Below, piece by piece: positions 5,651-61,986 of a stretch of DNA of 64,000 nucleotides (position 1 is its first letter; the number at the start of each line of letters is the position of its first letter). The translations under genes were made by a program, and so were the position numbers. Below the pieces are notes generated by a model. It had not been told where the DNA came from. It ran no database searches and saw only the letters and a list, made by a program, of their open reading frames with translations. The DNA lies in the IMG/VR virus record IMGVR_UViG_3300042301_002383, positions 3,322 through 67,321 of that record; one strand, given 5' to 3'. This stretch comes from a virus. Taxonomy: Duplodnaviria; Heunggongvirae; Uroviricota; Caudoviricetes.

Positions 5651-5675
5651 GCAAATATTTTTAAAAAAAGTTTAA

Positions 5676-5714: not shown

Positions 5715-5744
5715 CTATAATATTAATCACAAAAAAAATCTATT

Positions 5745-6197: not shown

Positions 6198-6231
6198 AGT
6201 TAGATTCAATCTCGGAAAGGGAGAGAATTAT

Positions 6232-6555: not shown

Positions 6556-6589
6556 TTTGGTAAAATAAAATTAAAGTTATATCTTTGTA
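6550..6589 (+). promoter_or_regulatory. Bacteroidetes-type promoter
   Basis: AATAATTTGG ... TATCTTTG before ATG 6618. Confidence 0.55.
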
Positions 6590-6617
6590 TTATTAATTCA
6601 CACTTAAATTTAAAATC

Positions 6618-37014: not shown

Positions 37015-37482
37015 TTACAATTGGAACCACTCTGGAGTATTTCTACCTTTCCATACACAGAATCCTTTTTTGTCCCCAATGTAATAATTGCGATAAGATT
37101 GGATTGTGTCTCCATAAACCTTAAATTCTTCAGGCATTGCAAGTGCGGGTGGTGTAAACTCTAAGTCTTTTATTTTGGGTCTATGATAAGCACACCATTC
37201 AATTATGTCTTGGGTTTTGTGACGTTTTCCATAACGGTAAGTGTATTCCTGACATAGGTTAAATCCTAAATCAACTAACCAAATATAGTTTTGTAAATCT
37301 TCTCTAACCCATTTAGAACATGGGTGATTCTTGTGTGATAGTTTATATGGTGCCTCTCCATTGGTTGCCCAATGTGCTCCACAAAGTAATTGGGCGGTTT
37401 CCAATATCATTTTAACAACGTGTTTATCGTTATGATATTGTGCACATAACTTGGGGTTCCAATCTAAAAAGAAAATGTTCAT
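37015..37482 (-). CDS. hypothetical protein
   Basis: 155 aa; conserved-looking N-terminus FLDWNPKLCAQYHNDKHVVKMILETAQLL, not assignable. Confidence 0.55.
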   Translation of the reverse strand: MNIFFLDWNPKLCAQYHNDKHVVKMILETAQLLCGAHWATNGEAPYKLSHKNHPCSKWVREDLQNYIWLVDLGFNLCQEYTYRYGKRHKTQDIIEWCAYHRPKIKDLEFTPPALAMPEEFKVYGDTIQSYRNYYIGDKKGFCVWKGRNTPEWFQL

Positions 37483-39274: not shown

Positions 39275-39670
39275 CTATACTTTTATCCATTTTTGTGTTG
39301 AATCTAACTTAAAGGACCCAACATATTTTTTATTCCATTGATTGGGGTTAATCAATGATAAAAATGTACTATCATTTTCTCTCACATATAAGTGATATAT
39401 TTCCCCCATTACTGGTATAAATGAGTATGTGGACTGATAGACTAATTCGTTCCAATTAACCTCATCGATTAACTTTTGGAACTCCTCTTTTAACTCATCG
39501 TACCTTGATTTAAATTGTTTGTTGGCCACACCTGCTTGCATTTGTTTCCAACCACCAACATCCTCTAATTTAATTGCAGGAGCACCCTGATTACTACCAT
39601 AAGTTAATTCTCTTTGGTAGTACCCCTTCTCTTCATCCCATACAACTAAGTCAGGTTTCTTTTTAGCCAT
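39275..39670 (-). CDS. hypothetical protein
   Basis: 131-aa ORF. Confidence 0.5.
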   Translation of the reverse strand: MAKKKPDLVVWDEEKGYYQRELTYGSNQGAPAIKLEDVGGWKQMQAGVANKQFKSRYDELKEEFQKLIDEVNWNELVYQSTYSFIPVMGEIYHLYVRENDSTFLSLINPNQWNKKYVGSFKLDSTQKWIKV

Positions 39671-39837
39671 TACATGATTTGATTTTTATCATCTTCGTGG
39701 TCATCACCCCAATTAAGAAAATCATCACCCTTATAATCCGGATGGTTATTTTTCATGTAATCGATACCAACAACCCATCTCCAAGAAATCAACCCAACAA
39801 TAAAAAATATTATTCCAAAAATCGGTAAGTGTTCCAT
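39670..39837 (-). CDS. small membrane protein
   Basis: internal ATG (MEHLPIFGIIFFIVGLISW...) of track ORF 39670..39882, avoiding 44-nt overlap. Confidence 0.4.
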   Translation of the reverse strand: MEHLPIFGIIFFIVGLISWRWVVGIDYMKNNHPDYKGDDFLNWGDDHEDDKNQIM

Positions 39838-39838
39838 G

Positions 39839-40201
39839 TTATTTATTCTTTTTGTTATGTGCTTTAGGTTTACCATCTTCATCTAACAAAACAAAGATAA
39901 TTTTTTCTATTTTAATTATCGACTGTTTGGTGTTTTTATTTCTAACGTCACAACATAACGTTACTGATGTTGTTCCAAATTTAACCAAGTCCATACCAAA
40001 TTCAATTACATCACCAACCTTTGCAGTTGTTACGAAATCAATCTCAGACATTGCTTTGGTAACAATGTTTGGACTACCCAATTGACAGATTGCAAATATT
40101 GCTGCCTCTTCATCTATCCATTTCAATAGTTGTCCACCAAATAATGTTCCCCTCGGGTTTAAATCACCTGGTTTAATCAACTTTCGTGTCCTGTATATCA
40201 T
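39839..40201 (-). CDS. hotdog-fold acyl-CoA thioesterase (YciA-like)
   Basis: 120 aa; LNPRGTLFGGQLLKWIDEEAAIFA...SEIDFVTTAKVGDVIEF aligns with the YciA/4HBT signature. Confidence 0.7.
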   Translation of the reverse strand: MIYRTRKLIKPGDLNPRGTLFGGQLLKWIDEEAAIFAICQLGSPNIVTKAMSEIDFVTTAKVGDVIEFGMDLVKFGTTSVTLCCDVRNKNTKQSIIKIEKIIFVLLDEDGKPKAHNKKNK

Positions 40202-40793
40202 CAGTTAAAAACTTTAAAATTTTCTCTTTAATACCACTCTGCTTAATTCCCTCCGAATCTAACGGAGTCTCCACAAAATTATCTAATCCCCATTCATGTT
40301 CGTATGGTACACTATAGTCCAAACCAGATTTCCCCATTCTCAAATCATCGATAGATACCCAATGAGTTATTTCGGGATGGTCAACAAGATACTGTTTGAT
40401 TTCAATAGTTCTGGTTTGTTCTAACTCCCAAGATCGGGACCAAATAAAACCAGCAGGATATGCATCAATATACCAAGTACATTGACTTAAGTTTGGGGTG
40501 AGAGCTATAGGTTTCTTTTTGATTCCTTGTGACTCATAATACTCACCCATCTCCTCAACAGTGGCCCATCTTTTCCAATCAGATGAGACAACAATTTCAG
40601 CATCAGTTTTTTCCAATATTTCATTTAACAACTTAATAGCTTTCTTATTAAAATTATCAAATCTCATCTCAACAGGCATCTCTAAAATACCTTGACTCAT
40701 CTTACGTCCAAACTCTTTTTGTTTCTTGTGTCTACCTCCCCATTCGGTGGATAAACATATCACCCCATCGTGATCTAAAAATATTACTTTCAT
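40173..40793 (-). CDS. HAD-superfamily phosphatase (HAD-IIIA / GmhB-like?)
   Basis: 206 aa; N-terminal VIFLDHDGVI (motif I DxDG); subfamily tentative. Confidence 0.5.
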   Translation of the reverse strand: MKVIFLDHDGVICLSTEWGGRHKKQKEFGRKMSQGILEMPVEMRFDNFNKKAIKLLNEILEKTDAEIVVSSDWKRWATVEEMGEYYESQGIKKKPIALTPNLSQCTWYIDAYPAGFIWSRSWELEQTRTIEIKQYLVDHPEITHWVSIDDLRMGKSGLDYSVPYEHEWGLDNFVETPLDSEGIKQSGIKEKILKFLTDDIQDTKVD

Positions 40794-40839
40794 ATAATGT
40801 TATTAACCTATACAAATATACGAAATATTTTTAATTATA

Positions 40840-41265
40840 TTAAGAGTTTTCGTTAATATATTGCAATTGTGGAGACCAAGTACCTTCAGATATTACCGTT
40901 GGTTTACTGTTCCTATCAATCATTACCCACTCCACATTAACAATACCCCAAGGTTCAAATTGTTCTAAAACATCTGACAATGTGAAACATTTACAACTAT
41001 AAATGTCAAATTGAGCCATTGCCGGTTGACCTTGATCCCAAATATGTATTGATGAGTGTGATGTTGCGAGAGTTACAGTTCCCGTTAATCCTTCATTACC
41101 CGGATAATCCACGTAGACACTCGTCGGTCCACCAACCACTTCCATCTTAACTTTATGAACTAAATCAATGAACCATTTATTGAGAACATCCACCTCTTTT
41201 GGTGGGTTTGTAATCCAAATCTTCATTAGAAGATGTTGGTGATACGGTACGAATTCTTCCTGCAT
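40840..41265 (-). CDS. pyruvoyl-dependent decarboxylase, S-adenosylmethionine decarboxylase (SpeH/class 1)-like
   Basis: 141 aa; VTLATSHSSIHIWDQG aligns with the SpeH autoprocessing region VVISESHLTIHTWPE (serine retained); substrate cannot be inferred. Confidence 0.6.
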   Translation of the reverse strand: MQEEFVPYHQHLLMKIWITNPPKEVDVLNKWFIDLVHKVKMEVVGGPTSVYVDYPGNEGLTGTVTLATSHSSIHIWDQGQPAMAQFDIYSCKCFTLSDVLEQFEPWGIVNVEWVMIDRNSKPTVISEGTWSPQLQYINENS

Positions 41266-41323
41266 TAATGTATTTTTTACTACACATATATATCAGGAAA
41301 ATTGTATTTTTCTAAGTTCTATT

Positions 41324-41737
41324 TTATTTAATTAACCAAGATGATGATTGAATTTTATCCCCTAAACCGTCAATCAATTTTATACCTAACCAATCACATA
41401 CTTGTCTCTCAGGGATAGCATCATTAAGTTGGTCCCCACCATTTGCAAACATTAGTTCGTTTGTTGAATCTTCTAAAGAATGAATGATTCCGATTGTTTG
41501 AGAAACAGTTCTATCCGTATCTACAGATAAGAATACCCTGTCAACCATTTTTAGATTTTGAATGATGAACATTCTCTCGTCTTCATCCTGAAACTCTTTA
41601 CTACCCTTTAACTCTCTCTGCTTGTCATTGTTAACAATGACGTAGAGTTTATCACCAAGTTCTTTGGACTTATTGAAATAATCAATGTGTCCTTTATGAA
41701 GAGGGTTAAAGTATCCACTTACAATCACAATTTTCAT
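41324..41737 (-). CDS. cytidylyl-/adenylyl-transferase (TagD / RfaE domain-II-like)
   Basis: 137 aa; (H/T)xGH motif in IVIVSGYFNPLHKGHIDYF plus ANGGDQ. Confidence 0.7.
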   Translation of the reverse strand: MKIVIVSGYFNPLHKGHIDYFNKSKELGDKLYVIVNNDKQRELKGSKEFQDEDERMFIIQNLKMVDRVFLSVDTDRTVSQTIGIIHSLEDSTNELMFANGGDQLNDAIPERQVCDWLGIKLIDGLGDKIQSSSWLIK

Positions 41738-42417
41738 TTATTAAACTTTTTAAAGTTTTTGATAAATTCTTTTTCGTACTTCTTGAGTTCCTTTGTGTCT
41801 AACCCATTATATAAACCAGTTGACATGAAAGCGTTAATTTCATCATCAATAATCTTCTTATCATTAACATAACCCATTTTAATAAGTTTCTTTTTTAACT
41901 TCTCATAATGGGTTGGTTTAATATTGTTAATTAAACTATTAACTATTTTTCTGTATTCCTTATTGGTAAAGTATAAACCATGTGCAATTTCATGATCCAT
42001 AGTTTTCAAATCTTTAGAACTCGCACCAATCAAATACCAATCACATCTTGTTCCATCATTTTTATTTTGTGAATCAATTGCGCAATAAAAATAAATGTCG
42101 TTCATAATTTGATCGTACTCTGTGTCTTTACAGAATATATGATTTGCTCTCTGCATAATATTACTTGGGATATTATAACCAGACCAATCGTCAGGATATG
42201 TGAACGTTCTTTTCTTCCATGCTAATTTATAATGTCTCATGTATTCCATCCATGTGAATGGTTTACCTCTGAACTTCTTATATGGTGATTCGTAGAATTC
42301 TTGATATCTACAAAATAACATGGCTCTATCATAATCATCATCAACAGTTACACAATATATTCTTGGTTTAACTTCTTTAATTACACCTTTAACTAATGGG
42401 TGCTTTATTTTTTTCAT
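41734..42417 (-). CDS. hypothetical protein with HExxH motif
   Basis: 227 aa; MDHEIAHGLY. Confidence 0.5.
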   Translation of the reverse strand: MKKIKHPLVKGVIKEVKPRIYCVTVDDDYDRAMLFCRYQEFYESPYKKFRGKPFTWMEYMRHYKLAWKKRTFTYPDDWSGYNIPSNIMQRANHIFCKDTEYDQIMNDIYFYCAIDSQNKNDGTRCDWYLIGASSKDLKTMDHEIAHGLYFTNKEYRKIVNSLINNIKPTHYEKLKKKLIKMGYVNDKKIIDDEINAFMSTGLYNGLDTKELKKYEKEFIKNFKKFNK

Positions 42418-42622
42418 AAATTTTGTTTTTACTAAACCAAATCATATGTGTTATTAATATTGCCAAATTAACAAACATAGTTGGGTTATTTTGTATTAGA
42501 TATCCGTAGTATAACCACATAACACAAGCGATTGCATTTACCAATCTTAGTTTCCACATTGTTTTAAATGTCATTGACAATAACACAACCGCAGACGATG
42601 CCCAACCCAGTAATTCAATCAT
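42389..42622 (-). CDS. small membrane protein
   Basis: 77 aa, 2-3 TM helices. Confidence 0.45.
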   Translation of the reverse strand: MIELLGWASSAVVLLSMTFKTMWKLRLVNAIACVMWLYYGYLIQNNPTMFVNLAILITHMIWFSKNKIYEKNKAPIS

Positions 42623-42706
42623 CTTTAATTTTATTAATTTGTCTAATCATATCGATTGTTCCAAATACGGATATAACCGCAAGAAACACAAATCCTAAAA
42701 TCACTA

Positions 42707-43321
42707 TCATATACAACTTTTTAATATTTCTAAACATAAGTCCGCCGGTATCTTACTTCTTTCGTAAGCATTGGCTCGACCCTGAGTTCCTGTTCTACTA
42801 CCTCTTGGTGCAGCAACGTGACAAGGATCACCGTTCTTACACATTGGTTTTGGTGTCCACATAATACTGTTCGTCCATATGTCAGTTGGTTTCATTCTTT
42901 CATCACCATATTGACAATAGGTTACCGATTGTTTATTTAACCCTTTAACAACATCCAATTTACGTAGAACTCCTCTTGGATTTTCCATGAACCAAAATGT
43001 TGGTTGGAAGTGATTAATTATTTCTAATGTCTTCTTAACTAACTCAATACCCAACTTCGCAGTTTCTGTTTTAGGTATGTAAGCACCTTTGCCACCAGAC
43101 CAATGATGTCCGATTGCGGCAACACTAAATCCGGTACACGGCGGTGATGCCCAAATTATATCTGGTTGAAACGGAACTTTGGTAACATCAAAATCTAATA
43201 TACTAATTGGGTAATGAATACCTTCAAACTCAATTAAATCGGATGAGAATACCTCCATCCCTAAACTTTCAGCAATCTTTCCAACAGAACGACTACCAGC
43301 AAATAATTCTAACACTTTCAT
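42707..43321 (-). CDS. small C5-cytosine methyltransferase-like protein (no obvious target-recognition domain)
   Basis: 204 aa; motif I LELFAGSRSVG, motif IV ASPPCTGFS, motif VI FMENPRGV. Confidence 0.6.
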   Translation of the reverse strand: MKVLELFAGSRSVGKIAESLGMEVFSSDLIEFEGIHYPISILDFDVTKVPFQPDIIWASPPCTGFSVAAIGHHWSGGKGAYIPKTETAKLGIELVKKTLEIINHFQPTFWFMENPRGVLRKLDVVKGLNKQSVTYCQYGDERMKPTDIWTNSIMWTPKPMCKNGDPCHVAAPRGSRTGTQGRANAYERSKIPADLCLEILKSCI

Positions 43322-43602
43322 TAACGTAAGTGTTTAAATTTGTTCGCAAGGTTGTTGATGAAATTTTCTTCTTCAATTGATAACAAATCTCTACACTTTG
43401 CAAGACGTTCTAAATTCTCCCAAAATATTTGATCATTGATGTTTGGTCGACGAACACCGTTGTTCTTACTTGTGGTTTCTTCTGAAGGTTGAATATGTCC
43501 ATCTTCTTCTAAAATCTCAACTAATCTTTTTAATTCTCTTTGATTACATGAGTCAATAAACTCACTTGGGTCGATGTCAACCTCAGCTGTAAATTCCGGC
43601 AT
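43321..43602 (-). CDS. hypothetical protein
   Basis: 93-aa ORF. Confidence 0.5.
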   Translation of the reverse strand: MPEFTAEVDIDPSEFIDSCNQRELKRLVEILEEDGHIQPSEETTSKNNGVRRPNINDQIFWENLERLAKCRDLLSIEEENFINNLANKFKHLR

Positions 43603-43658
43603 AATATTATGTTTTATTGTTTAATAAAAATATACGAAAAATTTTTGAAATAAAAAAA

Positions 43659-43982
43659 TTAAAGAGCGAAACTCTCACCACAACCACAAGTACGTGATGC
43701 GTTAGGATTTATAAATTGAAAACCCTTTCCGTTTAATCCATCTGAAAATTCTAATTCGGTACCAAAAAGATAAAGTAATGATTTATTGTCTATTAAAATT
43801 TGTACCCCTTTATCTTCCGAAAGTGTGTCCGATGGTTGTTGTTCCGTATCAAATGAAAGATCATATGACAACCCACTACATCCACCTCCTTTAACCGCCA
43901 CTCTTACAAATGGGGTTTGGAATCCACTTTCTTCAATTAGTGACTTTAATTTCTTCGCCGCTGTTTCTGATACTGTTACCAT
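43659..43982 (-). CDS. iscA: A-type Fe-S cluster carrier (IscA/SufA/HesB family)
   Basis: 107 aa; VKGGGCSGLSY and C-terminal CGCGESF. Confidence 0.8.
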   Translation of the reverse strand: MVTVSETAAKKLKSLIEESGFQTPFVRVAVKGGGCSGLSYDLSFDTEQQPSDTLSEDKGVQILIDNKSLLYLFGTELEFSDGLNGKGFQFINPNASRTCGCGESFAL

Positions 43983-44392
43983 TAAATGTGAGTTTCCCCA
44001 AAGATTAGTTGTTCTAATCCTTGTTTTTGTCTATAATCGTTTATTGCTGATTTAATTGCATCTTCCGCCAATACCGAACAATGTATTTTTACCGGTGGTA
44101 AATTTAATTCTTCAACCAAATCCATATTATCAATGGTTACCGCCTCATCTAAACTCTTACCTTTTAACCATTCTGTTGCTACGGAAGAAGATGCAATTGC
44201 TGAACCACAACCAAAGGTTTTGAATTTGGCGTCGGTTATAATATTGTCAACCACTTCAATTTGTAATCTCATTACATCACCACACTCAGGAGCACCGACT
44301 AACCCAGTACCAACGTTTGATTTAGACTTGTCTAATGTTCCTACGTTTTTAGGGTTTGAGTAGTGGTCCAAGACCTTATCTGAATATGCCAT
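43982..44392 (-). CDS. iscU: Fe-S cluster assembly scaffold IscU/NifU
   Basis: 136 aa; HYSNPKNVG, GAPECGDVM, FKTFGCGSAIASSS, HCSVLAEDAIKSAINDY; stop/start overlap with iscA (TAATG). Confidence 0.85.
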   Translation of the reverse strand: MAYSDKVLDHYSNPKNVGTLDKSKSNVGTGLVGAPECGDVMRLQIEVVDNIITDAKFKTFGCGSAIASSSVATEWLKGKSLDEAVTIDNMDLVEELNLPPVKIHCSVLAEDAIKSAINDYRQKQGLEQLIFGETHI

Positions 44393-45957: not shown

Positions 45958-46932
45958 TTAATTTTTATGAGATTTCAAAACTTTTTGTGATTCAATATAA
46001 TTGTCAATAAAGTTTATTCGTTGACCAATCCAATACATCACATTGACTGTCATAGAGTTACCAATTGCACCTTTAACACTTGAATACGATGGTTTCTTAC
46101 CAGCAACTTCAAAGTCTAAATAACCGTCTGGAAATCCTTGGAGTCTCTCCAATTCTCTTTCTGTGAAGGTTCTAATACTATCATTATCAATCCAATAGTT
46201 AGATGTGGATACTTTACCAAATCCATCAACTAATGTTTGTGCATATGATTTGGTTACTGTACCTGCGAGTTTAATTTCTCCAAGAATATTTCTGGCGTAC
46301 TCATCCCTCTTGATTCTATTCTTTTCTTTAACGCTTTCAAAACATCCTTCTTCAAATAATACGGAGAATGGGACTTTCCAATTGTTTCCACGATATCCAA
46401 CAATGAAGATTCTTTTGCGTCGTTGGGGAACTCCGAAGTATTGGCTGTCGAAAACCCGATAAGCGATTGAGTATTCTTCTCCTTGGACAACTCCTTGTTT
46501 GTCGAGGTTTTCGACTTGGAAGTTAGTACCGGTGAAAGAGGAGATGATTTCACACAACGCTCTTCTGTGTTTTTTCTTAAAAACGCCTTCGACATTTTCC
46601 CAAACGAACCATCTTGGTCGTTTGTCTTTAAGAATTTCTCCATACTTAAGGGAGAGTTGACCACGGATATCATCCATTCCTTCGTTGAGTCCTGCATCGG
46701 AAAAAGATTGACAAGGCGTTCCTCCGACCAATACGTCGAAGTTGATGTTTTTGTAGACTGCATAGTCGTTTAGTTTAGTTAAATCTGAAAATAAGGGAAC
46801 GTTGGGGTAGTGATGTGATAAGACTTTTTGTGGGAAAGAGGCGAAGTCACATAAACCTTCACACTCCCAACCTAATGGTGACCAAGCCACGGTTGCGGCC
46901 TCGATTCCACTACATACTGAGAAATATTTCAT
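45958..46932 (-). CDS. DNA (cytosine-5)-methyltransferase (Dcm-like)
   Basis: 324 aa; motif I FSVCSGIEA, motif IV GGTPCQSFSDAG, motif VI FVWENVEG. Confidence 0.8.
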   Translation of the reverse strand: MKYFSVCSGIEAATVAWSPLGWECEGLCDFASFPQKVLSHHYPNVPLFSDLTKLNDYAVYKNINFDVLVGGTPCQSFSDAGLNEGMDDIRGQLSLKYGEILKDKRPRWFVWENVEGVFKKKHRRALCEIISSFTGTNFQVENLDKQGVVQGEEYSIAYRVFDSQYFGVPQRRKRIFIVGYRGNNWKVPFSVLFEEGCFESVKEKNRIKRDEYARNILGEIKLAGTVTKSYAQTLVDGFGKVSTSNYWIDNDSIRTFTERELERLQGFPDGYLDFEVAGKKPSYSSVKGAIGNSMTVNVMYWIGQRINFIDNYIESQKVLKSHKN

Positions 46933-48464: not shown

Positions 48465-50360
48465 TTAAAATGGAAGTGGTCTTCTCACCTCTTCTTGAAT
48501 CAATTCATCGATTCTTCTTGGTTCCCTATGTTCAGACATCACCTCAATACCATTTATTTTAATTGGTACCTTTTTCTTATCTAATGAATGTAGAATACCC
48601 ATCCTCGCATAGATTTTAGTTTTTTCCTTTAACTTATTAACCGCCATTTCAATATCTGCGGGTGGTTGGTTATTACAAAAATGTCTAGCTTGGATTAGAT
48701 TACCTGTTTGACAATCAAATTCACAGGTAACTCTATCTTGTTTATTTTCAGTTCTTATGGAAATAATTATTGATTTTTCTTTATCAGAATACGACGCAAC
48801 ACAATGGTGCATGAACCTACCTTCTTCATCATAATCCACTTCACGTTTCAATATGTATGGATAGAATGTAATGTCCCCAAATTCATCATCACCTAAATTT
48901 ATTTTTAAATCAATAGGTAATTCAATATCTGATATCATTTTATTTGAAAATTGATATTCAACTTCCCAACCCTTTTTAATCAATTTCATCATCTTAGATA
49001 CCTCATGATGTTCATCGTTAAACTCATTAATGTGTTTTGATTTTAAATGTAAATCAGGTATATACTCACGTAATTTCCCAATCATTCTAAAATGATCGTG
49101 TAAATCACCAATAAATCTCTCATTAATAATTGTTTCCTTTTCACTAGTTAATCTTACATATCCTTTATTTTCTATTTTTAAACTATTAATAATTTTCACA
49201 ATATTTTCTTTTTCAATATTGGTTATTAGAAATTTTTCTTTTTTAAATTCTTTCTCAAAGTTAAATTTAGAAACTCCAAAATTATTTGAATTCTCATATC
49301 TTGAATTCATAAAATGAATAGGGTCGATACTACCAATATATTTTGAATAGTTGTCACCAAAATAATAACATAATCTAGCCAATGACTGTATATCAATTTT
49401 ACTATTTTCATGCATTATTTTAATTGTGATTTTAGACTTAATCCCGAACATATCTAAAATGGACGCTATAAGTTTTCTATCGTTTTTCTTTAGAAACTTT
49501 TCCGTTGGGTAAAATATCTTAATCCAATAACTGTAATCGTTACAAATTTTAATCTTTTTTAATTCAACAAAACGTTCTAACATTAATTGTGCAAACCATA
49601 TTCCGTTGAATGTTATATTTTGTTGATTTAAATTAAAAACATCATTTAAAACTGACACAAATTTTTTATTATCGAACGTTTGATTGTGTTCATCCAAAAG
49701 AACCGAATTCTTATCCAATGGTTTACGCATCTCAATAATTCCACCATCCCTAAATGATTGTTCTAAATAATTGAAGTTGTTGGTCCTAAAAGTTTTGGTG
49801 GTTTTTTTACCAACCTTAGTCATATTAAGTGTTGTGAAATTACCCGTAACCAGGTTAAAGGTAACCGAAGTAACACTCATTGATTTTTTAAAATAGATAC
49901 TATTAAATTGTCTATGTTTATGTTGACGATAGATTTTAATTGTAACTTTATCACCATGTCGTCTGATGGAACGTTCGATTGCATTTACTGTAATCTCACT
50001 AAATGGATTACCGTAATGTCTTTTGATATGTCTATCGTTTCTTGTTTCAAAATTGTAGATTGCATAATTCATACTGACTCTTTCACCAATATCAGAATCA
50101 CCATAAAAATATCTTGTCTTTCTTTTATCTATCTGTTTATGAAAGTCAACCATTCGACCAACTTTAGGTCTTCTTAATTCCCCAAGACGAATAGTAAGTT
50201 TCTTTGTTGGGGTGGTTACTTGAGTTAAATCCTCCTCAAAGTCAAAAAAATCTAAATCATCGTTAAAATTGGTGACTTCTTTCTTGTCCCCAATTTTACA
50301 ATAATCCTTAAAAAGGGTAATGGTGGCATAGTTGAATTTTTGGGTTATTACGTCTTCCAT
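48465..50360 (-). CDS. large hypothetical protein (paralogue B)
   Basis: 631 aa; LASILDMFGIKSKITIKIMHENSKIDIQSLARLCYYFGDNY vs LPSVLDHYGIKSKYLIGELNKQNTNKSVKLDSLNYICKLFGDNY in paralogue A; C-terminal FMHHCVASYSDKEKSII...CEFDCQTGNLIQARHF. Confidence 0.6.
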   Translation of the reverse strand: MEDVITQKFNYATITLFKDYCKIGDKKEVTNFNDDLDFFDFEEDLTQVTTPTKKLTIRLGELRRPKVGRMVDFHKQIDKRKTRYFYGDSDIGERVSMNYAIYNFETRNDRHIKRHYGNPFSEITVNAIERSIRRHGDKVTIKIYRQHKHRQFNSIYFKKSMSVTSVTFNLVTGNFTTLNMTKVGKKTTKTFRTNNFNYLEQSFRDGGIIEMRKPLDKNSVLLDEHNQTFDNKKFVSVLNDVFNLNQQNITFNGIWFAQLMLERFVELKKIKICNDYSYWIKIFYPTEKFLKKNDRKLIASILDMFGIKSKITIKIMHENSKIDIQSLARLCYYFGDNYSKYIGSIDPIHFMNSRYENSNNFGVSKFNFEKEFKKEKFLITNIEKENIVKIINSLKIENKGYVRLTSEKETIINERFIGDLHDHFRMIGKLREYIPDLHLKSKHINEFNDEHHEVSKMMKLIKKGWEVEYQFSNKMISDIELPIDLKINLGDDEFGDITFYPYILKREVDYDEEGRFMHHCVASYSDKEKSIIISIRTENKQDRVTCEFDCQTGNLIQARHFCNNQPPADIEMAVNKLKEKTKIYARMGILHSLDKKKVPIKINGIEVMSEHREPRRIDELIQEEVRRPLPF

Positions 50361-51331: not shown

Positions 51332-52495
51332 CTAGTTCGATAGTTTTGCCTTTATAGATGGATGTGATTCATACCCATCGATTATGAATTGATGGGGTTG
51401 TAAATTGTTTATAAACCCATCAAATGTATCTTTATGGTGTTCAAAGTGTGCCAACACTAAGGGACTAAAATTTAATGTTGGTAAATTTTTAAATGGTTCT
51501 CTACCGATTTGTTCTTTAGCTTGTTCGATGTGATTCGAATACAGATGAACATCACCTAAGTTACCAATTAATTCATCGGGTATCATATTAACTTCCATAG
51601 CTAGAATTTCTAATAACAAACCATATGATGCAATATTAAATGGTAACCCTAAGAATGTATCTACACTTCGTTGATTCCACATTAGAGATATTGCTCGTTT
51701 AGGTATATTATATGATTCTAACTCTTCGCTCAAACCACCACCAAATGGTACAATATCATCTACCATTGATTTAAATCTTTCCTCACCAACTTTCTTTTTT
51801 AATAGCTCCCACATCTCTTCTCCTGTTAACTTTCTAGTGTACACTTGAAATCCATAATGACAAGGTGGTAAGACCATTTCATCCAATTGACCAACATTCC
51901 AAGCGTTTACAAGTAATCGTCTACTATCTGGATTTGTTTTCAACTCATCAATTAAGTTTTGAATTTGATCAATCCATTTATCACCTTCAACGTATGTATC
52001 ATGTCCGGTTAATGGGTCTTTTATTGTTGTCTTAATTAATGTTTTAGTGTGCCACTCTCTCCATTGTGCACCGTAGATTGGTCCTAACTCACCAAAAATA
52101 TTACAAAATCTTTCATCCGTTTTAATTAAACGAATAAAATTTTCTTTATCCCATGGTTCTCCGTTATTAGACCATAATGAATTTCCTACCCAAGCAGCAT
52201 AACTATTCTCATATCTTTTATAAGCATCACCATCCCAAATGTGACAATCATTATCAACAAGGTATTTGATGTTAGTGTCACCACGGAGGAACCATAACAA
52301 TTCAGTTACCATTGTCTTCCATGCCATTTTCTTCGTTGTCAACAATGGAAATCCCTGTGACATTTTATGTCTAATCTGACGACCAAATACCGATATGGTA
52401 CCAGTGCCAGTCCTATCAGTTTTAATAACTCCATTATCTAAAATGTCTTGTAATAATTCTTGATATTTTGAATCCAATCTATTCATACTTACCAT
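51332..52495 (-). CDS. thyA: thymidylate synthase ThyA homologue with two large insertions
   Basis: 387 aa (ThyA is usually ~264-320); DRTGTGT, ELLWFL.GDTN, catalytic PCH, DVFLGLPFNIASY (Asn retained), GDVHLYSNH; about 50-aa insert after DGDAY and about 45-aa insert after PCHYGFQ. Confidence 0.8.
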   Translation of the reverse strand: MVSMNRLDSKYQELLQDILDNGVIKTDRTGTGTISVFGRQIRHKMSQGFPLLTTKKMAWKTMVTELLWFLRGDTNIKYLVDNDCHIWDGDAYKRYENSYAAWVGNSLWSNNGEPWDKENFIRLIKTDERFCNIFGELGPIYGAQWREWHTKTLIKTTIKDPLTGHDTYVEGDKWIDQIQNLIDELKTNPDSRRLLVNAWNVGQLDEMVLPPCHYGFQVYTRKLTGEEMWELLKKKVGEERFKSMVDDIVPFGGGLSEELESYNIPKRAISLMWNQRSVDTFLGLPFNIASYGLLLEILAMEVNMIPDELIGNLGDVHLYSNHIEQAKEQIGREPFKNLPTLNFSPLVLAHFEHHKDTFDGFINNLQPHQFIIDGYESHPSIKAKLSN

Positions 52496-54610: not shown

Positions 54611-54976
54611 ATGTCAGTACACATCAACAACAAAACATTTCAAGCCGAATACCTATCAAATCCAGAAGACATTAGTCGAGGTATGATGGGTAGAAACTCA
54701 TTGGACGGTTGTATGGTATTCAAGATGGGTAAGGGTCATCATTCATTTTGGATGAAGAATTGCCTCATCCCACTTGACATCGTATTTGTTTTAAATAATC
54801 GTATCAATCGTATCCATCCCAATTGTCCCGTTGAAGATTCCCATAGAATGACTCTACCTCGTTACACCGGTATTGGTGACCACGTGATAGAGTTTCCTGC
54901 AGGAACTACAGAGGGTTGGAAAGTAGGGGATCGTGTTGCAATGTATCTAGGGTCTCCTCAGAATCCTGTTCGATAG
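54611..54976 (+). CDS. DUF192-family protein
   Basis: 121 aa; GMMGRNSLDGCMVFKM...FWMKNCLIPLDIVFV matches the DUF192 (COG1430) core; plus-strand gene inside the minus block. Confidence 0.6.
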   Translation: MSVHINNKTFQAEYLSNPEDISRGMMGRNSLDGCMVFKMGKGHHSFWMKNCLIPLDIVFVLNNRINRIHPNCPVEDSHRMTLPRYTGIGDHVIEFPAGTTEGWKVGDRVAMYLGSPQNPVR

Positions 54977-55619
54977 GACTATCATATTTCACTCTTGGTT
55001 TAACCTTCTCAAATACCCAAAAATAACTATGGTACTTACGAGCATGTTCTTGTTTAGTCCATTTAGTCCCAAAACTATTGATACGAACGTTTGATGTTAG
55101 GATAAATAAATCTCTCGGATAGAACCCTAACTCTTGGGCCATATTCATAACCATAACGTGAGAGAAGTGGTTCTTACCTCCAGATACCGTATCTTGACAT
55201 TTAAAGACTACGTAACCACCTTTATCACAAACTCGGTACAATTCCTTCAATGTGTTATAATAATGGGTTTTTAGGTGGTTATATGACTCATAACCCTCGA
55301 ATCTCTTTGCAATAATAGAACTCCCTTCTTTATTATCACGATATGACTTACCAGCAATAACAAATGGAGGATCAAACATTATACTTTTCATTGAACCGTC
55401 CTCAAATGATAAGTTTTCGGAACTACACTCAACCACTGTATCATTATAAGGATACAAATCTGATTTGTTAGTAGGTTCTGGTAAATCTTTCCAAAAAGCA
55501 CCTTTAGAATAGGTACAATCTAAATCAAATCTTTCAATGTTGTAAAGAAACATGATGCTCTTTATAGCCTCGTAGTTAGAGGTGTAGACACTTTTTACGG
55601 GTTTAAAATCTTTTTCCAT
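54906..55619 (-). CDS. DNA amino-methyltransferase (N6-adenine or N4-cytosine; DPPF motif)
   Basis: 237 aa; motif IV SIMFDPPFVIAG; its 3' end overlaps the converging DUF192 gene by about 70 nt. Confidence 0.7.
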   Translation of the reverse strand: MEKDFKPVKSVYTSNYEAIKSIMFLYNIERFDLDCTYSKGAFWKDLPEPTNKSDLYPYNDTVVECSSENLSFEDGSMKSIMFDPPFVIAGKSYRDNKEGSSIIAKRFEGYESYNHLKTHYYNTLKELYRVCDKGGYVVFKCQDTVSGGKNHFSHVMVMNMAQELGFYPRDLFILTSNVRINSFGTKWTKQEHARKYHSYFWVFEKVKPRVKYDSPIEQDSEETLDTLQHDPLLSNPL

Positions 55620-56161: not shown

Positions 56162-57511
56162 ATGAAGAAAAAAATACTTTTATTATCAGATGATTTAAGA
56201 ATGACAAGTGGTATTGCCACTATGTCCAAAGAATTCGTTTTAGGAACCATTCACAAATATGATTGGATTCAATTAGGTGCGGCAATTAAACATCCAGAAC
56301 TTGGTAAGATAGTTGACATCAATGATGATGTTAGAAAAAGAACCGGTATTAAAGATGCCAATTTAAAAATTATACCATATAATGGTTATGGTGATATTGG
56401 TATATTAAGAAAATTAATCGCTGAAGAGAAACCAGATGCAATTTTACATTTCACGGACCCGCACTATTGGCAATGGTTATATGATAACGAACATGAGATT
56501 AGACAACAAGTCCCAATTTTATTTTATCATATTTGGGATAACTTACCTGACCCATATTACAATAGAGATTACTATGAATGTTGTGATTGGTTAGGTTGTA
56601 TCTCTAAACAAACCTATGGTATCGTTCATCGTGTTGGTAAAACCACAAGGGAAGTTACACATAAACCATTGGAAGATTGGCAAATTAGTTACGTTCCTCA
56701 TGGAATCAATCCTGATGTGTTTAAACCAGTTAAGAAAGTGGATGAAGAATTATCTAAACTTATTCATGGTGATAAGAAATATGATTTCATTCTATTCTAT
56801 AACAATAGAAACATTAGAAGAAAACAACCATCTGATGTGATTTATTCATTTAAATTATTCTGTGACAGTTTACCTAAAAAAGAATCTGATAAATGTTTGT
56901 TATTGATGCACACCAATCCCGTGGATGAGAATGGTACAGATTTAAATGCAGTAATTAATGAGTTATGTCCTAACTACGATGTTAAATTTACCAACGCTAA
57001 ATTAGAACAAGACAAATTAAATGATTTATATAACATTGTTGATTGTACAATCAACATTGCAAATAATGAGGGGTTTGGATTAACGACCGCAGAATCATTA
57101 ATGGCAGGTACACCAATTATTGTTAGCGTGACAGGAGGTCTACAAGATCAATGTGGATTTAATTTTAGTGCTGATGATTATATTGAGGTTGGGACGTTGC
57201 ACAAATCTAAAGGGACACCACATGGTGATTGGGTTATACCTGTTTGGGCCGCAGCAACTAATTTAAATGGATCGGTACCAACACCTTATATCTTTGATGA
57301 TAGGGTTAATGACGATGATGTTGCAGATGCAATTATGACAGTATATAAATGGGGACGTAAAGAAAGAAAAGAAAGAGGAAAGAAAGGTAGAGAATTTATG
57401 AAGAAGAACTTATCTTCTAAAGTAATGTCAGATACTTTTATTGAGGGAATAGAAAAAACATTAAATAACTTTAAACCGAGAAAAAGATTCGATTTATATA
57501 AGATAGTATAA
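56162..57511 (+). CDS. GT4-family (GT-B) glycosyltransferase
   Basis: 449 aa; C-terminal NEGFGLTTAESLMAGTPIIVSVTGG (E-x7-E region). Confidence 0.8.
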   Translation: MKKKILLLSDDLRMTSGIATMSKEFVLGTIHKYDWIQLGAAIKHPELGKIVDINDDVRKRTGIKDANLKIIPYNGYGDIGILRKLIAEEKPDAILHFTDPHYWQWLYDNEHEIRQQVPILFYHIWDNLPDPYYNRDYYECCDWLGCISKQTYGIVHRVGKTTREVTHKPLEDWQISYVPHGINPDVFKPVKKVDEELSKLIHGDKKYDFILFYNNRNIRRKQPSDVIYSFKLFCDSLPKKESDKCLLLMHTNPVDENGTDLNAVINELCPNYDVKFTNAKLEQDKLNDLYNIVDCTINIANNEGFGLTTAESLMAGTPIIVSVTGGLQDQCGFNFSADDYIEVGTLHKSKGTPHGDWVIPVWAAATNLNGSVPTPYIFDDRVNDDDVADAIMTVYKWGRKERKERGKKGREFMKKNLSSKVMSDTFIEGIEKTLNNFKPRKRFDLYKIV

Positions 57512-57512
57512 T

Positions 57513-58763
57513 ATGAGCAAACCAAGTTTATTATTTAGAGGGCCGGTAAAAACAAGAAGTGGGTACGGCGCACACTCAAGAGATTTATTACAAGCACTGT
57601 ATGAAATGAATCTATTCGATATTAATGTTGATAGTTGTATGTGGGGATCAACTCCATTAACGGCATTAGAAGAAGAAAATACATTTCACAAATGGATTGA
57701 AAGCGTAATTGTAACAAGAATAGAACATAGACCAGACATCTATGTTCAAGTTACAGTACCAAATGAATTTCAAACATTAGGTAAATTCAACGTAGGGATA
57801 ACTGCTGGAATTGAAACTACCGTTGCACCTAAAGAATGGATTGATGGGTGCAATAAAATGGATTTAATTGTTACAACATCCACATTTTCGAAAGATGTAT
57901 TGTTATCTACCGTTTACAATGAAACGGAAAACAACACGGGTAAATTAATTAAACAACATAAGATTGAAAAACCAATTAAGGTTTTGTTTGAAGGTGTTGA
58001 TTTGTCAATTTACAATAACGAGTACAAAGGTTTAGATATTGATATTAAAGAGGAGTTCGCATTTCTTTTCGTTGGTCATTGGTTAAAAGGTAATCTTGGT
58101 CAAGATAGAAAAGACATCGGTATGTTAATTAAATGTTTTAGTAAATCATTTGAGGACGTTGAAAATCCACCGGCTTTAGTTCTTAAAACATCTTCAGCAA
58201 CATTTTCAGTTAAGGAAAGAGAATCTTTCAGAAAACGTATTAGTGATTTAGTTAAAGACATTAAAAATCCACCTCCAATTTATTTGTTGTTTGGTGAATT
58301 AACTAACGATGAAATGAATCAATTATATAATCATCCAAAGATTAAAGCAATGATATCATTAACTAAAGGTGAAGGGTTTGGTAGACCTCTATTAGAATTC
58401 ACTATGTCAGGTAAACCTGTGATAGCATCTAATTGGTCAGGTCATAAAGATTTCTTACCTATGGATAAGGCAATCATGGTCGGTGGGTCATTAACTGAAG
58501 TTGATAATAGTGCGGTTGATACGTTTATTATTAAAGGTTCTAAGTGGTTTACCGCAAATTATAATGAGGCTTCGGAGGTGATGAAATTAGTGCATGAAGA
58601 TTATAATAAATTCTTAGAAAAATCAGAAACTTTAAGGATTGAAAATAAAGAAAAGTTTTCGTTAGATAAAATGAGAGAAACATTTAAAGATATGTTTCAA
58701 TTATTCCAAACTAAACCACAGGAACAAAAATTAGTTCTACCTAAATTAACAAAAACTAAATAA
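57513..58763 (+). CDS. GT-B fold glycosyltransferase (GT4-like)
   Basis: 416 aa; GEGFGRPLLEFTMSGKPVIAS; 1-nt spacing from previous gene. Confidence 0.7.
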   Translation: MSKPSLLFRGPVKTRSGYGAHSRDLLQALYEMNLFDINVDSCMWGSTPLTALEEENTFHKWIESVIVTRIEHRPDIYVQVTVPNEFQTLGKFNVGITAGIETTVAPKEWIDGCNKMDLIVTTSTFSKDVLLSTVYNETENNTGKLIKQHKIEKPIKVLFEGVDLSIYNNEYKGLDIDIKEEFAFLFVGHWLKGNLGQDRKDIGMLIKCFSKSFEDVENPPALVLKTSSATFSVKERESFRKRISDLVKDIKNPPPIYLLFGELTNDEMNQLYNHPKIKAMISLTKGEGFGRPLLEFTMSGKPVIASNWSGHKDFLPMDKAIMVGGSLTEVDNSAVDTFIIKGSKWFTANYNEASEVMKLVHEDYNKFLEKSETLRIENKEKFSLDKMRETFKDMFQLFQTKPQEQKLVLPKLTKTK

Positions 58764-58764
58764 T

Positions 58765-59040
58765 ATGGCAAGAGGTAGAAAAAAAATAAAGGATGAATTA
58801 TTACAATCTGTTATTGATAAATTAACAATCGACGACACACCAAAAATTGAAACATACATGCCATGTGAATGGGTGATTCAATTTGATAATGATGAACCAC
58901 AATTATTTACAACCGCAGATGAAACTGTAGAATCACCAGAAGTTATTATTAGAATACAAAATACTAACGAAGGTTATATTAAGTTTACAGACCCAACATC
59001 GGGTAAAACATTTAAATTATTTGCAAGACCAAAAAAATAG
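58765..59040 (+). CDS. hypothetical protein, tandem paralogue of 59043..59288
   Basis: 91 aa; C-terminal GKTFKLFARPKK vs NKVFKLFAREIQ, and VIQFDNDEPQLFT vs FCFQFGDEEPIVFAT. Confidence 0.5.
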   Translation: MARGRKKIKDELLQSVIDKLTIDDTPKIETYMPCEWVIQFDNDEPQLFTTADETVESPEVIIRIQNTNEGYIKFTDPTSGKTFKLFARPKK

Positions 59041-59042
59041 TA

Positions 59043-59288
59043 ATGAACTTTAAATTTTTTCAAAAGGAGGAATTAAAACATAATAATTTTATTGTGTTAG
59101 AACCTACAAGATTTAATCCACAAAATGTTGAGTTTTGTTTTCAATTTGGTGATGAGGAACCAATTGTATTTGCAACTGGTCCTAATGAATGTAGTATTCA
59201 TTTAAGTCCAACAACCAACACCAACATGACGTTCAATGATAATAATAAAGTTTTTAAATTATTCGCAAGAGAAATACAAAATGGTTAA
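59043..59288 (+). CDS. FKFF-N-terminal family protein 7
   Basis: 81 aa; starts MNFKFFQKEELK. Confidence 0.5.
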   Translation: MNFKFFQKEELKHNNFIVLEPTRFNPQNVEFCFQFGDEEPIVFATGPNECSIHLSPTTNTNMTFNDNNKVFKLFAREIQNG

Positions 59289-59523
59289 AAATTTTAAATT
59301 TTTTCATGGGGTAATTAGGAGTAGTTTAACTGCGACATGGACTCATCAAGAGGGAGAGTTGTTTGGTATCGACGCAGAAGAAGAATTAACAAGATTGATG
59401 TCTAATGAAATTGCTAGAGAAATTGACAATAACATTATTGAGGAATTAACAAGAAGAATTAATGGTGGGAATCCATCGATATTTGGGGGTCCGATTATCG
59501 GTTTTAACAATAATGTAGCATGA
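59281..59523 (+). CDS. FKFF-N-terminal family protein 8
   Basis: ATG at ~59281 (MVKNFKFFHGVIRS...) inside track ORF 59236..59523, overlapping the previous stop (ATGGTTAA); EELTRRINGG matches 19816..20298. Confidence 0.5.
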   Translation: MVKNFKFFHGVIRSSLTATWTHQEGELFGIDAEEELTRLMSNEIAREIDNNIIEELTRRINGGNPSIFGGPIIGFNNNVA

Positions 59524-59610
59524 GATGTGAAAGACATAATTGGGACACGGAAGATAGGGAGTGGTGTTGGAAATGTGAAGAATTAACATTAAAAGAAAAT
59601 AAACAAAAAT

Positions 59611-60234
59611 ATGAAGATAAGTTTCGCCATAACAGTTTGCAACGAGTTGGAGGAAATCAAGAGATTAGTTCCGTTCTTATTGAAACACAAAAGGTCTCAG
59701 GACGAGATTGTGATTCTATATGATGACAAGAATGGTAACAAAGAAATATTAGATTTCTTATTACCATACAATAAATTACCTAACGTTCAAACATGGAGAG
59801 GTTTTGATTGGAATAACAATTTCGCAGATTGGAAAAATACTTTAAACGAATATTGTGCTGGTGATTACATTTACCAAATTGATGCTGATGAAATGATTAG
59901 TGAATATATGGTTAAAAATTTGCACGATATATTAGGAATGAATCCTGATGTGGATTTAATATTTGTCCCAAGAATAAACACTGTTGAGGGTTTAACCGAT
60001 AATCATATTAGAAAATGGGGGTGGCATGTAAACGATAAGGGGTGGGTTAACTTTCCGGATGCTCAGGGAAGAATTTACAAAAAGGGAATGACTTGGTATG
60101 GTCGTGTACATGAAAGAATAATTGGCGGTCAAAAATTCGCATCGTTACCAACAGATGACGATGATTATTTTATTCAACACCATAAAACAATAGAACGTCA
60201 AGAAAAACAAAATAATTTTTATCAATCAATTTAA
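59611..60234 (+). CDS. GT2-like glycosyltransferase
   Basis: 207 aa; ISFAITVCNE N-terminus and IYQIDADE (DxD). Confidence 0.6.
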   Translation: MKISFAITVCNELEEIKRLVPFLLKHKRSQDEIVILYDDKNGNKEILDFLLPYNKLPNVQTWRGFDWNNNFADWKNTLNEYCAGDYIYQIDADEMISEYMVKNLHDILGMNPDVDLIFVPRINTVEGLTDNHIRKWGWHVNDKGWVNFPDAQGRIYKKGMTWYGRVHERIIGGQKFASLPTDDDDYFIQHHKTIERQEKQNNFYQSI

Positions 60235-60242
60235 GATATTAT

Positions 60243-60824
60243 ATGAGTAAAATAGAATTTATTATACCAACATACAATAGACCACACCATTTGATGTGTC
60301 TTCTTAATTCACTTTGTGCACAAAGAAGTGACAAGTGGTGTGCACATGTTATTGCCGATTGTCCTCCTGAAGGTTCATTGGATAAAGTTATGGATTATTT
60401 TAAGGATAATGAAAAGATAAAATTTACAATTTTACCTGAACGTTATAATGATTGGGGTCACACCCCTAGAAATTATGGTGTAGAACATTCAACGGAAGAT
60501 TGGATTGTTATGACAGGTGAAGATAATTACTATGTTCCAGTATTCGTTGATACTTTTTTATCTGTTGTTAGTGAAAAAGTGGGATTTGTATTTTGTAATA
60601 TGGTTCATAATTGGAAAAATTTTGAGTATATTGGTATAGATTGTGAACCTTCGTGGGGTAAAATCGATATTGGAAATTTTATGATTAAAAGAAAATTTGC
60701 TAAACAAATGAGATTAAATCCGTCAATTGAACAAGCAGATGGGGTTTATGTTGAAGAATTTAAGGTAAAATTTCCTTATATACAAATAATTAAAATACAT
60801 AAAGTATTATATATACACAATTAA
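60243..60824 (+). CDS. GT2 glycosyltransferase
   Basis: 193 aa; IEFIIPTYNRPHHL, MTGEDNYY. Confidence 0.65.
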   Translation: MSKIEFIIPTYNRPHHLMCLLNSLCAQRSDKWCAHVIADCPPEGSLDKVMDYFKDNEKIKFTILPERYNDWGHTPRNYGVEHSTEDWIVMTGEDNYYVPVFVDTFLSVVSEKVGFVFCNMVHNWKNFEYIGIDCEPSWGKIDIGNFMIKRKFAKQMRLNPSIEQADGVYVEEFKVKFPYIQIIKIHKVLYIHN

Positions 60825-60825
60825 T

Positions 60826-61985: not shown

Positions 61986-61986
61986 T

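Follow-up and report, generated by a model that had tools for sequence, protein, structure and literature searches.

Seven co-oriented genes at positions 39839-43321 (minus strand) of a 64,000-nt stretch of phage DNA (the window, from IMG/VR record IMGVR_UViG_3300042301_002383) are probably a block of independent accessory genes, adjacent because of the collinear layout of the phage family and local single-gene turnover, and not the parts of a shared pathway; the genes most likely act independently. An earlier sequence-only reading had joined the seven into one route to an unusual activated sugar, polyamine or nucleotide. Its annotations are largely right, but its central one-pathway inference is not supported. 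Of note in the region are individual proteins, namely a SpeD-fold decarboxylase, a compact C5 methyltransferase and an HExxH protein, and not the cluster. The phage is an uncultured jumbo phage, probably from freshwater, and is distantly related to XacN1-type Xanthomonas phages. At the level of open reading frames (ORFs), the block reads as follows (aa, amino acids):

TE120, 39839-40201 (-): 120 aa, hotdog-fold 4HBT acyl-CoA thioesterase of YciA/ACOT type
HAD206, 40173-40793 (-): 206 aa, HAD phosphatase of the HAD_SAK_2 clade
AMDC141, 40840-41265 (-): 141 aa, AdoMetDC-fold (SpeD class 1b) pyruvoyl decarboxylase
NT137, 41324-41737 (-): 137 aa, small HxGH nucleotidyltransferase of the cytidylyltransferase-like superfamily
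HEXXH227, 41734-42417 (-): 227 aa, predicted zincin-like metallohydrolase, HEIAH at 142-146
TM77, 42389-42622 (-): 77 aa, small hydrophobic protein, weakly SemiSWEET-like
sm40, 42615-42737 (-): 40-aa ORF with a single transmembrane segment, between TM77 and MT204
MT204, 42707-43321 (-): 204 aa, compact DNA cytosine-C5 methyltransferase

Gene order and gene content in related phages

More than 100 contigs in IMG/VR are related to the window, the longest reaching 335 kb (300-335 kb class). We searched 17 window proteins by tblastn against 131 loci, which collapse to 51 distinct complete configurations; presence and absence were scored within flanks no longer than 10 kb on those contigs. Gene order is kept among these loci, while the content is mosaic, with 26 gene combinations in the 51. 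HEXXH227 is present in 48 loci, HAD206 in 34, MT204 in 31 and AMDC141 in 28; TE120, TM77 and a downstream gene for a DUF2452 protein occur in 13 each, and NT137 in four. None of the 51 distinct complete loci carries all seven genes together. Only the same genotype shows the full block again: locus L272 matches it at 100% identity over 5300 nt, and a JGI contig of 27 kb shares its gene layout. Three loci (L269-L271) encode an MT204 protein 100% identical to that of the window, yet are without NT137 and TM77. The deletions in L269 match the edges of the coding sequences: 12 bp stand in place of 412 bp at NT137, and 5 bp in place of 210 bp at TM77. In another relative (L042) the slot between HEXXH227 and a downstream lysin-like gene is filled with unrelated cargo.

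Within the phage family the genes of the block are therefore gained and lost singly. The co-occurrence that would mark a one-pathway cluster is not seen across the 51 related loci, and clustering of the block genes is not retained in unrelated genomes. The closest cultured homologue differs by gene, falling in pelagiphages, T4-like cyanophages, Xanthomonas jumbo phages, Bacillus Herelleviridae and Inoviridae, or Vibrio phages, and the homologues stand alone in pelagiphages, cyanophages, XacN1, Bcp1 and Inoviridae. The sequence-only reading had itself named a different closest-homologue taxon for each gene and a lack of synteny elsewhere as signs of coincidental adjacency, and both are observed. 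No cultured phage gave a megablast match to the block DNA; sensitive blastn returned matches to IscU, a thioesterase fragment and a methyltransferase fragment only. The literature on HAD_SAK and on jumbo-phage comparative genomics yielded nothing specific to this block.

Fixed order, single-gene presence or absence and indels precise to the coding sequence are also features of the hypervariable accessory (moron or auxiliary metabolic gene) regions of large phages. A difference is that the cassette borders examined here showed neither a homing endonuclease nor an integrase or repeat. The backbone genes of the stretch are IscU/IscA, p93, HEXXH227, tm70 and the gene for a 488-aa peptidoglycan-binding lysin-like protein, and single-gene accessory cassettes would accumulate around such conserved genes.

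Orientation and spacing of the block genes

All seven minus-strand ORFs described earlier were found where they had been placed. They are not strictly consecutive, as the conserved sm40 sits between TM77 and MT204; tblastn finds it at 47-68% identity in other loci of the family, and the JGI contig of the same layout has it annotated as a gene. The genes are indeed co-oriented, with overlapping or near-abutting ends (spacing of neighbouring block ORFs, -44 to +58 nt), but this is no more than background here, because about 44 kb of the window form one co-directional minus-strand array, of which the block is a small portion. Between 12 and 55.6 kb the minus strand holds 35 of the 37 ORFs of at least 150 aa, and GC skew is below zero over nearly all of 12-56 kb. 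Tight gene spacing is usual in phage genomes. Co-oriented, abutting enzyme genes are the default in large phages and should not be taken as evidence of a pathway. Per-gene GC content (0.24-0.38; window mean 0.33) gives no clear signal of foreign origin.

The family assignments fare better than the cluster: six of the seven hold (4HBT, HAD, AdoMetDC fold, HxGH, HExxH and C5), and the 77-aa membrane protein is weakly SemiSWEET-like. The PHROG assignments are in accord with those of Pfam. Every block enzyme is far under its NCBIfam equivalog cut-off, and PADLOC returned nothing except methyltransferase models for MT204.

The block is flanked upstream by p93, IscA, IscU, several small ORFs and a full-size C5 methyltransferase, and downstream by tm70, the DUF2452 protein and the lysin-like protein. 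The immediate neighbours are:

p93, 43321-43602 (-): 93 aa; its stop overlaps the MT204 start (ATGA)
tm70, 39670-39882 (-): small hydrophobic protein, downstream flank
DUF2452 protein, 39275-39670 (-): downstream flank

No family match was found for p93 in Pfam, PHROGs or NCBIfam. Whereas tm70 is present in nearly all related loci, the DUF2452 protein is variable.

NT137, HAD206 and the nucleotide-sugar pathway

The pathway proposed for the seven genes would end in NT137 and HAD206 as an HldC/GmhB-like pair and would feed either a glycan island at 56-64 kb or a DNA hypermodification. We regard it as very improbable. In its favour, the best NCBIfam model for NT137 is that of RfaE domain II (rfaE_dom_II, TIGR02199, 1e-16), an island of glycosyltransferases and methyltransferases does lie at 56-64 kb, and nearby genes include those for three DNA methyltransferases and for a ThyA homologue enlarged by an insertion of about 110 aa. 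The score of NT137 against TIGR02199 is, however, 61 bits against a cut-off of 181.5 (PRK11316: 49 bits against 521), and TagD, CoaD, NadR and RibF-type NCBIfam models are matched as well. NT137 is a complete small (H/T)xGH nucleotidyltransferase, as had been proposed, with an HKGH motif, a C-terminal SSS and a Pfam CTP_transf_like match at 7.3e-14; its PDB matches are 3glv, TagD and HldC (5x9q). It resembles HldC/RfaE-II and TagD in the HxGH motif, in its size (these are of ~135 aa) and in superfamily, but it is far under every equivalog cut-off, and no partner enzymes of these pathways were found near it.

The second half of the proposed pair fares no better. HAD206 belongs to the HAD superfamily by its motif I (D7-H-D9-G-V, DHDGV) and motif IV (S-I-D-D), both read from the translation, and to the HAD_SAK_2 clade by Pfam (PF18143, 3.9e-20, 73 bits against a gathering score of 27.5). 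It is a member of phrog_1818, a PHROG of unknown function, and has no PDB sequence match. No NCBIfam model matches it at E<=0.01, including HAD-IIIA, GmhB and histidinol-phosphatase, and the earlier label of a HAD-IIIA-like or GmhB-like phosphatase is therefore unsupported. The HAD_SAK_2 clade is linked to nucleic-acid ends and not to small molecules (Pfam description). HAD206 would be an Asp-nucleophile phosphatase from a clade otherwise tied to RNA-end repair. Outside the phage family it has weak matches only, in Vibrio phages and in very large (0.5-0.6 Mb) uncultured and Prevotella Lak phages.

Neither the HldC/RfaE-II equivalog level nor a GmhB-type HAD-IIIA protein, the two marks of an ADP-heptose end, is thus found. 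No SIS isomerase or sugar kinase was seen among the neighbours scanned, and no GmhA isomerase or HldA kinase among about 45 window ORFs scanned, which are part of the window's ORFs; the host could supply such steps. The neighbouring ORFs scanned gave no match to heptose, CDP-alcohol or base-hypermodification families. The glycan island, for its part, is over 13 kb from the block, on the other strand. It is a divergent plus-strand group (window 56162-63632) of two GT4 and three GT2 glycosyltransferases and two SAM-dependent methyltransferases (SAM, S-adenosylmethionine), with no sugar-nucleotide synthesis gene among the ORFs scanned.

DNA hypermodification was considered and rejected as an outlet, as no scanned neighbour matched a PHROG annotated as a base-modification enzyme and the ThyA homologue strongly matches ordinary thymidylate synthase (phrog_160, 9e-107). 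The latter protein (window 51332-52495, minus strand) has 387 aa against a 266-position Pfam profile (9.5e-90), from which the insertion of ~110 residues follows. MT204, moreover, is a DNA methyltransferase by its fold, and most relatives lack NT137, as does a sister strain whose MT204 is identical. The mosaic gene content largely refutes a single pathway feeding either outlet.

The distribution of NT137 fits instead that of a single-gene cassette which moves between genomic contexts. Other jumbo contigs carry relatives 81-87% identical to it, in an unrelated context without AMDC141 or HEXXH227 homologues nearby. Read by eye, this alternative context comprises DPPY methyltransferase-like, GIY-YIG-like and SGNH-like ORFs and an M23-like peptidase, with ORF-free gaps flanking. 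More distant homologues (33-39% identity) are stand-alone genes of T4-like cyanophages (S-SSM7 gp186, P-TIM68); the one in S-SSM7 adjoins the DNA polymerase gene. The product of NT137 would be a small NMP-transferase. In a second jumbo-phage lineage (L257), ORF-free stretches at 3700-5000 and 6050-6800 surround the NT137 homologue, and spurious translations there resemble tRNA T-arms; their sequence suggests that this homologue may lie inside a tRNA gene array.

AMDC141 as a predicted arginine-type decarboxylase

The recognition of AMDC141 as an AdoMetDC-fold homologue with its autoprocessing serine retained is borne out. Pfam AdoMet_dc matches at 2.8e-9 (37.7 bits against a gathering score of 25), the processing serine is kept in LAT|SHSSIHIW with predicted cleavage at T68|S69, and S69, H74 and C91 (S63, H68 and C83 in the T. 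maritima enzyme) align with the corresponding residues of PDB 2iii and of the pelagiphage HTVC201P protein. AMDC141 would cleave itself at Thr68|Ser69 to yield the pyruvoyl cofactor, and would decarboxylate an amino acid, most likely L-arginine to agmatine, raising the polyamine supply of the host cell.

The obvious alternative is a plain S-adenosylmethionine decarboxylase, giving decarboxylated SAM for spermidine, as in many cyanophages. The Pfam score above the gathering threshold and the retained Ser, His and Cys agree with this, and among the polyamine genes of phages that for AdoMetDC is the most frequent (PMC9992855). Other features point the other way. AMDC141 has IHIWDQ where 2iii and SpeD1 domains have SIHTWPE, so that Asp stands in place of the H-T-W-P-E Pro, which is reported to be invariant in true AdoMetDCs (PMC10407285); it also has LAT|S for LAE|S, with Thr in place of Glu before the Ser. 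It misses the TIGR03330 equivalog cut-off (28.3 bits against 75.65). A tblastn search of cultured phages recovered pelagiphage-type homologues only, that of HTVC201P among the best (36% identity), and no cyanophage AdoMetDC. We consider a plain AdoMetDC rather improbable.

The signature of SpeDC ornithine decarboxylases, with the four diagnostic residues Gln, Thr, Phe and Tyr (PMC10407285), is not reproduced either. We placed these residues from the SpeD2 domains of Fig. S5 of that paper, whose text gives no positions, as Q at -5, T at -1, F after the His and Y six before the Cys; AMDC141 has V, T, I and Q there, and Thr alone matches.

The nearest characterised relative is the SpeD homologue of HTVC201P (AXH71538), a pyruvoyl-dependent L-arginine decarboxylase (Li et al. 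PNAS 2023, PMC9992855; JBC 2023, PMC10407285). The two share the class 1b fold and 36% identity over ~80% of the protein, the T|SH site, H-x-W-D instead of H-x-W-P, the segment PAM-Q-x-D-x-Y-x-C, whose Q stands six residues ahead of the Cys, and the retained His and Cys. Because T|S, H-x-W-D and this Q are shared with the HTVC201P enzyme, we predict that AMDC141 is an arginine-type amino-acid decarboxylase and not a SAM decarboxylase. The HTVC201P gene is a stand-alone phage auxiliary gene, as we read AMDC141 to be; the pelagiphage homologues lie between an exonuclease and ribonucleotide reductase. The proteins also differ: that of HTVC201P has 122 aa, whereas AMDC141 has 141 with N- and C-terminal extensions; position -5 is Val in AMDC141 but Gln in HTVC201P and in SpeDC ornithine decarboxylases; and HTVC201P is a podovirus, while AMDC141 belongs to a jumbo phage. 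The earlier remark that phage AdoMetDC homologues have in some cases switched substrate appears to fit this protein, as the AdoMetDC hallmarks are missing from its sequence and its nearest characterised relative is an arginine decarboxylase. The AMDC141 clade is a divergent branch of the SpeD fold, abundant in freshwater jumbo phages, and its substrate would extend the series of neofunctionalisation from AdoMetDC to arginine and ornithine decarboxylases.

Pairing of AMDC141 with HAD206

Several observations weigh against full independence of the genes. Tight linkage is confined to AMDC141 and HAD206. A HAD206-type gene follows AMDC141 in 27 of the 28 distinct loci that carry it (Fisher p = 5e-7, a test that ignores phylogeny and adjacency), and the remaining locus has a divergent HAD after AMDC141, so that some HAD is present in 28/28. 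NT137 at this locus is always accompanied by AMDC141 and HAD206 (4/4), and in the alternative context of NT137 a HAD206 homologue lies 3-4.5 kb from it. A gene scored as absent could, furthermore, lie elsewhere in the same genome, beyond the flanks of at most 10 kb that were covered.

The pairing, the constant company of NT137 and the nearby HAD206 homologue would all be expected of a smaller module, in which a single metabolite passes through AMDC141 and HAD206 in turn, and optionally through NT137 as a third enzyme. An amino acid linked to a phosphate or a nucleotide, for example, would be decarboxylated, and dephosphorylation or nucleotidyl transfer would then give an unusual amine or activated amino-alcohol. 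The sequence of AMDC141, which matches the signature of neither true AdoMetDCs nor SpeDC ornithine decarboxylases, is also in line with such a module. The two genes are adjacent, however, so that one indel removes both, and the slot holds a HAD of one of two types in most loci, whether AMDC141 is present or not; the second type is a paralogue 25-28% identical to HAD206. HAD206 occurs without AMDC141 in seven configurations, AMDC141 homologues occur without a HAD in L127 and in all pelagiphages examined, and NT137 is missing from 24 of the 28 AMDC141-bearing loci. HAD206 also has a promoter-like motif of its own, and the tie of its clade to nucleic-acid ends speaks against a small-molecule substrate. 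On balance we find the smaller module fairly unlikely. A further version makes AMDC141 a new substrate class of the SpeD fold, neither arginine nor ornithine, working with HAD206 and in some strains NT137 towards an unusual amine or nucleotide-activated amino-alcohol. In its favour, none of the three published signatures is fully matched by AMDC141, and a HAD follows in 28/28; we hold it to be quite improbable. Independent accessory genes, with AMDC141 as a predicted arginine-type enzyme, are the reading that we retain.

MT204, a compact DNA cytosine-C5 methyltransferase

MT204 had been described as having C5-methyltransferase motifs I, IV and VI and no room for the usual target-recognition domain. 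This description is correct, and motifs VIII and X are present too: I is FAGSRS, IV is PPC, VI is ENP, VIII is QYGDERMKPT and X is RSKIP. The protein matches phrog_757 at 3.6e-32 and Pfam PF00145 (DNA_methylase) at 6.9e-7, the latter partially, over motifs IV-VI only. Residues F7, G9, P61, C62, E113, N114, P115 and R116 are invariant in the alignment of the family. About 40 residues separate motifs VIII and X, with a conserved loop C..G..PCH.AAPRGS.TGTQG; a separate target-recognition domain (~80-110 residues) is not present.

An AlphaFold2 model built from a 48-sequence alignment has a predicted local distance difference test (pLDDT) score of 91.3, and the top PDB matches of this model in Foldseek are M.HhaI, DNMT3A/B and M.HaeIII (probability 1.0, TMq 0.5-0.58). 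Residues 151-184 are modelled as coil (pLDDT 59-87). In the model MT204 appears structurally closest to M.HhaI and to the DNMT3A/B catalytic domains. Relative to M.HhaI it is ~120 residues shorter, and a loop of ~40 residues, the least confident portion of the model (pLDDT 59-77), takes the place of the target-recognition domain. Both the motifs and the class-I fold of DNA C5-methyltransferases are found, and by its fold MT204 models as an autonomous DNA cytosine-C5 methyltransferase. Judged by the model, it belongs with phage DNA-modification genes and not with small-molecule metabolism. MT204 may methylate cytosine C5 in the phage DNA, together with a 324-aa C5 and an N6/N4 methyltransferase, as protection from restriction.

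The catalytic motifs and the loop are common to MT204 and other compact phage C5 enzymes of phrog_757 (Bcp1 gp133, Xoo-sp15 gp48, Inoviridae UOF77800), with identities of 43-51% for Bacillus phage and gut-phage homologues and 35% for Inoviridae. In Bacillus Bastille-like phages the homologues (43-51% identity) lie next to full-size methyltransferases, and in Bcp1 and Xoo-sp15 among other methyltransferases, while the 35% identical homologue is the sole methyltransferase of a 4.6-kb Inoviridae genome. DNA C5-methyltransferases of ~200 aa without a separate recognition domain are thus a widespread family. In the window, three DNA methyltransferases lie within 13 kb, all on the minus strand: the C5 enzyme of 324 aa (45958-46932), MT204, and the N6/N4 enzyme of 237 aa (54906-55619).

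HEXXH227, a conserved backbone gene

HEXXH227 is present in 48 of the 51 loci and is a conserved backbone gene of this phage family. The HEIAH motif lies at residues 142-146. H142, E143 and H146 are invariant in the family, as are D192 and E193, the candidates for the third ligand. No Pfam, PHROG or NCBIfam model matches the protein. From its sequence we predict a conserved zincin-like metallohydrolase, and it would act as a hydrolase of this type. Among known systems, the closest would be the ATLF-like/M34-type zincins (the Pro-Pro endopeptidases PPEP-2/3 and the anthrax lethal factor family).

The family is very large (1905 clusters at 50% identity) and is found mainly in bacteria of the candidate phyla radiation (CPR; Yanofskybacteria, Paceibacterota, Saccharibacteria), DPANN archaea and metagenome-assembled genomes of Methanosarcinales (L204-L239), in addition to jumbo phages. 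A search of IMG/VR with the family alignment returned the same close relatives. An HExxH family of this size, shared by jumbo phages and CPR/DPANN genomes, is thus without a model in Pfam, PHROGs or NCBIfam. Among the neighbours of the CPR/DPANN genes (36 genome loci; Pfam scan of 80 neighbours), no partner from the block recurs; the recurrent neighbours are GARS (six cases, GARS-type ATP-grasp) and S30AE (four), all in CPR lineages. Homologues in XacN1 and Xoo-sp13 lie 5-10 kb from the thioesterase gene, with ~20 unrelated genes between the two in XacN1.

In an unrelated 45-kb ENA contig (L137), a 508-aa HEXXH227 homologue is fused to a zinc ribbon, with ankyrin-repeat genes nearby. A pyruvoyl arginine decarboxylase (PvlArgDC, PF01862), non-homologous to AMDC141, is encoded two genes away (3922-4455, against 5001-6527 for the HEXXH227 homologue). 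We rejected a link between HEXXH227 and decarboxylases because this is a one-off and no decarboxylase recurs in 38 other loci. The homologues in XacN1 (ORF432, AP018399.1 306771-307415) and Xoo-sp13 (MN047793.1 292348-292902) are annotated as 'ABC transporter ATP-binding protein'. This label is probably a misannotation, judging from the sequences: no such domain is found in HEXXH227 or in the 33 members scanned.

TE120 and TM77

The acyl-CoA thioesterase at the end of the block is confirmed as a 4HBT hotdog-fold protein. TE120 matches Pfam 4HBT at 1.4e-13 and is below the YciA equivalog cut-off; its PDB matches are acyl-CoA hydrolases and ACOT12 (1e-13 to 1e-16), and it has the motif PGDxNxxGxxFGG. 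It would hydrolyse acyl-CoA thioesters, judging from these matches. The thioesterases of the Xanthomonas/Stenotrophomonas jumbo phages XacN1 (ORF409), Xoo-sp13 and RAS14 are like TE120 in length and hotdog fold and are 54-61% identical to it, but the neighbours in XacN1 are unlike those of TE120: a PARP, a vWA protein, an ATPase and GMP reductase.

TM77 is a membrane protein as far as its three hydrophobic segments go, which were read by eye as transmembrane; its family is weakly SemiSWEET-like at a sub-threshold level. It has a W..YG motif, and the likeness to SemiSWEET covers the second and third segments. MtN3_slv matches at 7.4e-4 (20 bits against a gathering score of 23.7) over the last two hydrophobic segments only, the PDB SemiSWEET 4rng at E=0.035, and no PQ motif is seen in the sequence. 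TM77 may be a SemiSWEET-like mini membrane protein. Its position varies, lying on either side of HEXXH227 in relatives.

A candidate promoter motif

A promoter-like motif occurs twice in and near the block:

43628-43639 (-): promoter-like motif TTTCGTATATTT, 26 nt upstream of p93
40814-40825 (-): second copy of TTTCGTATATTT, 21 nt upstream of the HAD206 start

In the form TTTCGTATATTT(G)T, with an A-rich stretch before it, the motif is found at six sites in the window (13133, 21607, 40814, 43628, 50381 and 55654), all six on the minus strand, where 1.95 sites are expected by chance. At all four sites whose adjoining gene was checked, it lies 21-35 nt before the start codon. The copy upstream of the p93 orthologue is kept in 14 of 31 distinct relatives, and that upstream of HAD206 in only 4 of 44. 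We regard the sequence as a candidate promoter of this phage family, and p93 is probably the first gene of a transcription unit running into the block. If the motif is a promoter, the block therefore spans at least two putative transcription units.

Other genes of the array

A 155-aa protein (window 37015-37482, minus strand) matches phrog_624, 'DNA binding protein', at 1.4e-60, with no Pfam or NCBIfam model in the scan made. A 631-aa protein (window 48465-50360, minus strand) has a C-terminal PcfJ-like domain and gave no match by tblastn. IscU (NifU_N) and IscA (Fe-S_biosyn) are encoded by an overlapping pair (window 43659-44392, minus strand). Between these two, an extra gene for a 102-aa ferredoxin (Fer4) is found in the close relatives L269-L271, L273 and L275 (L269 1937-2245).

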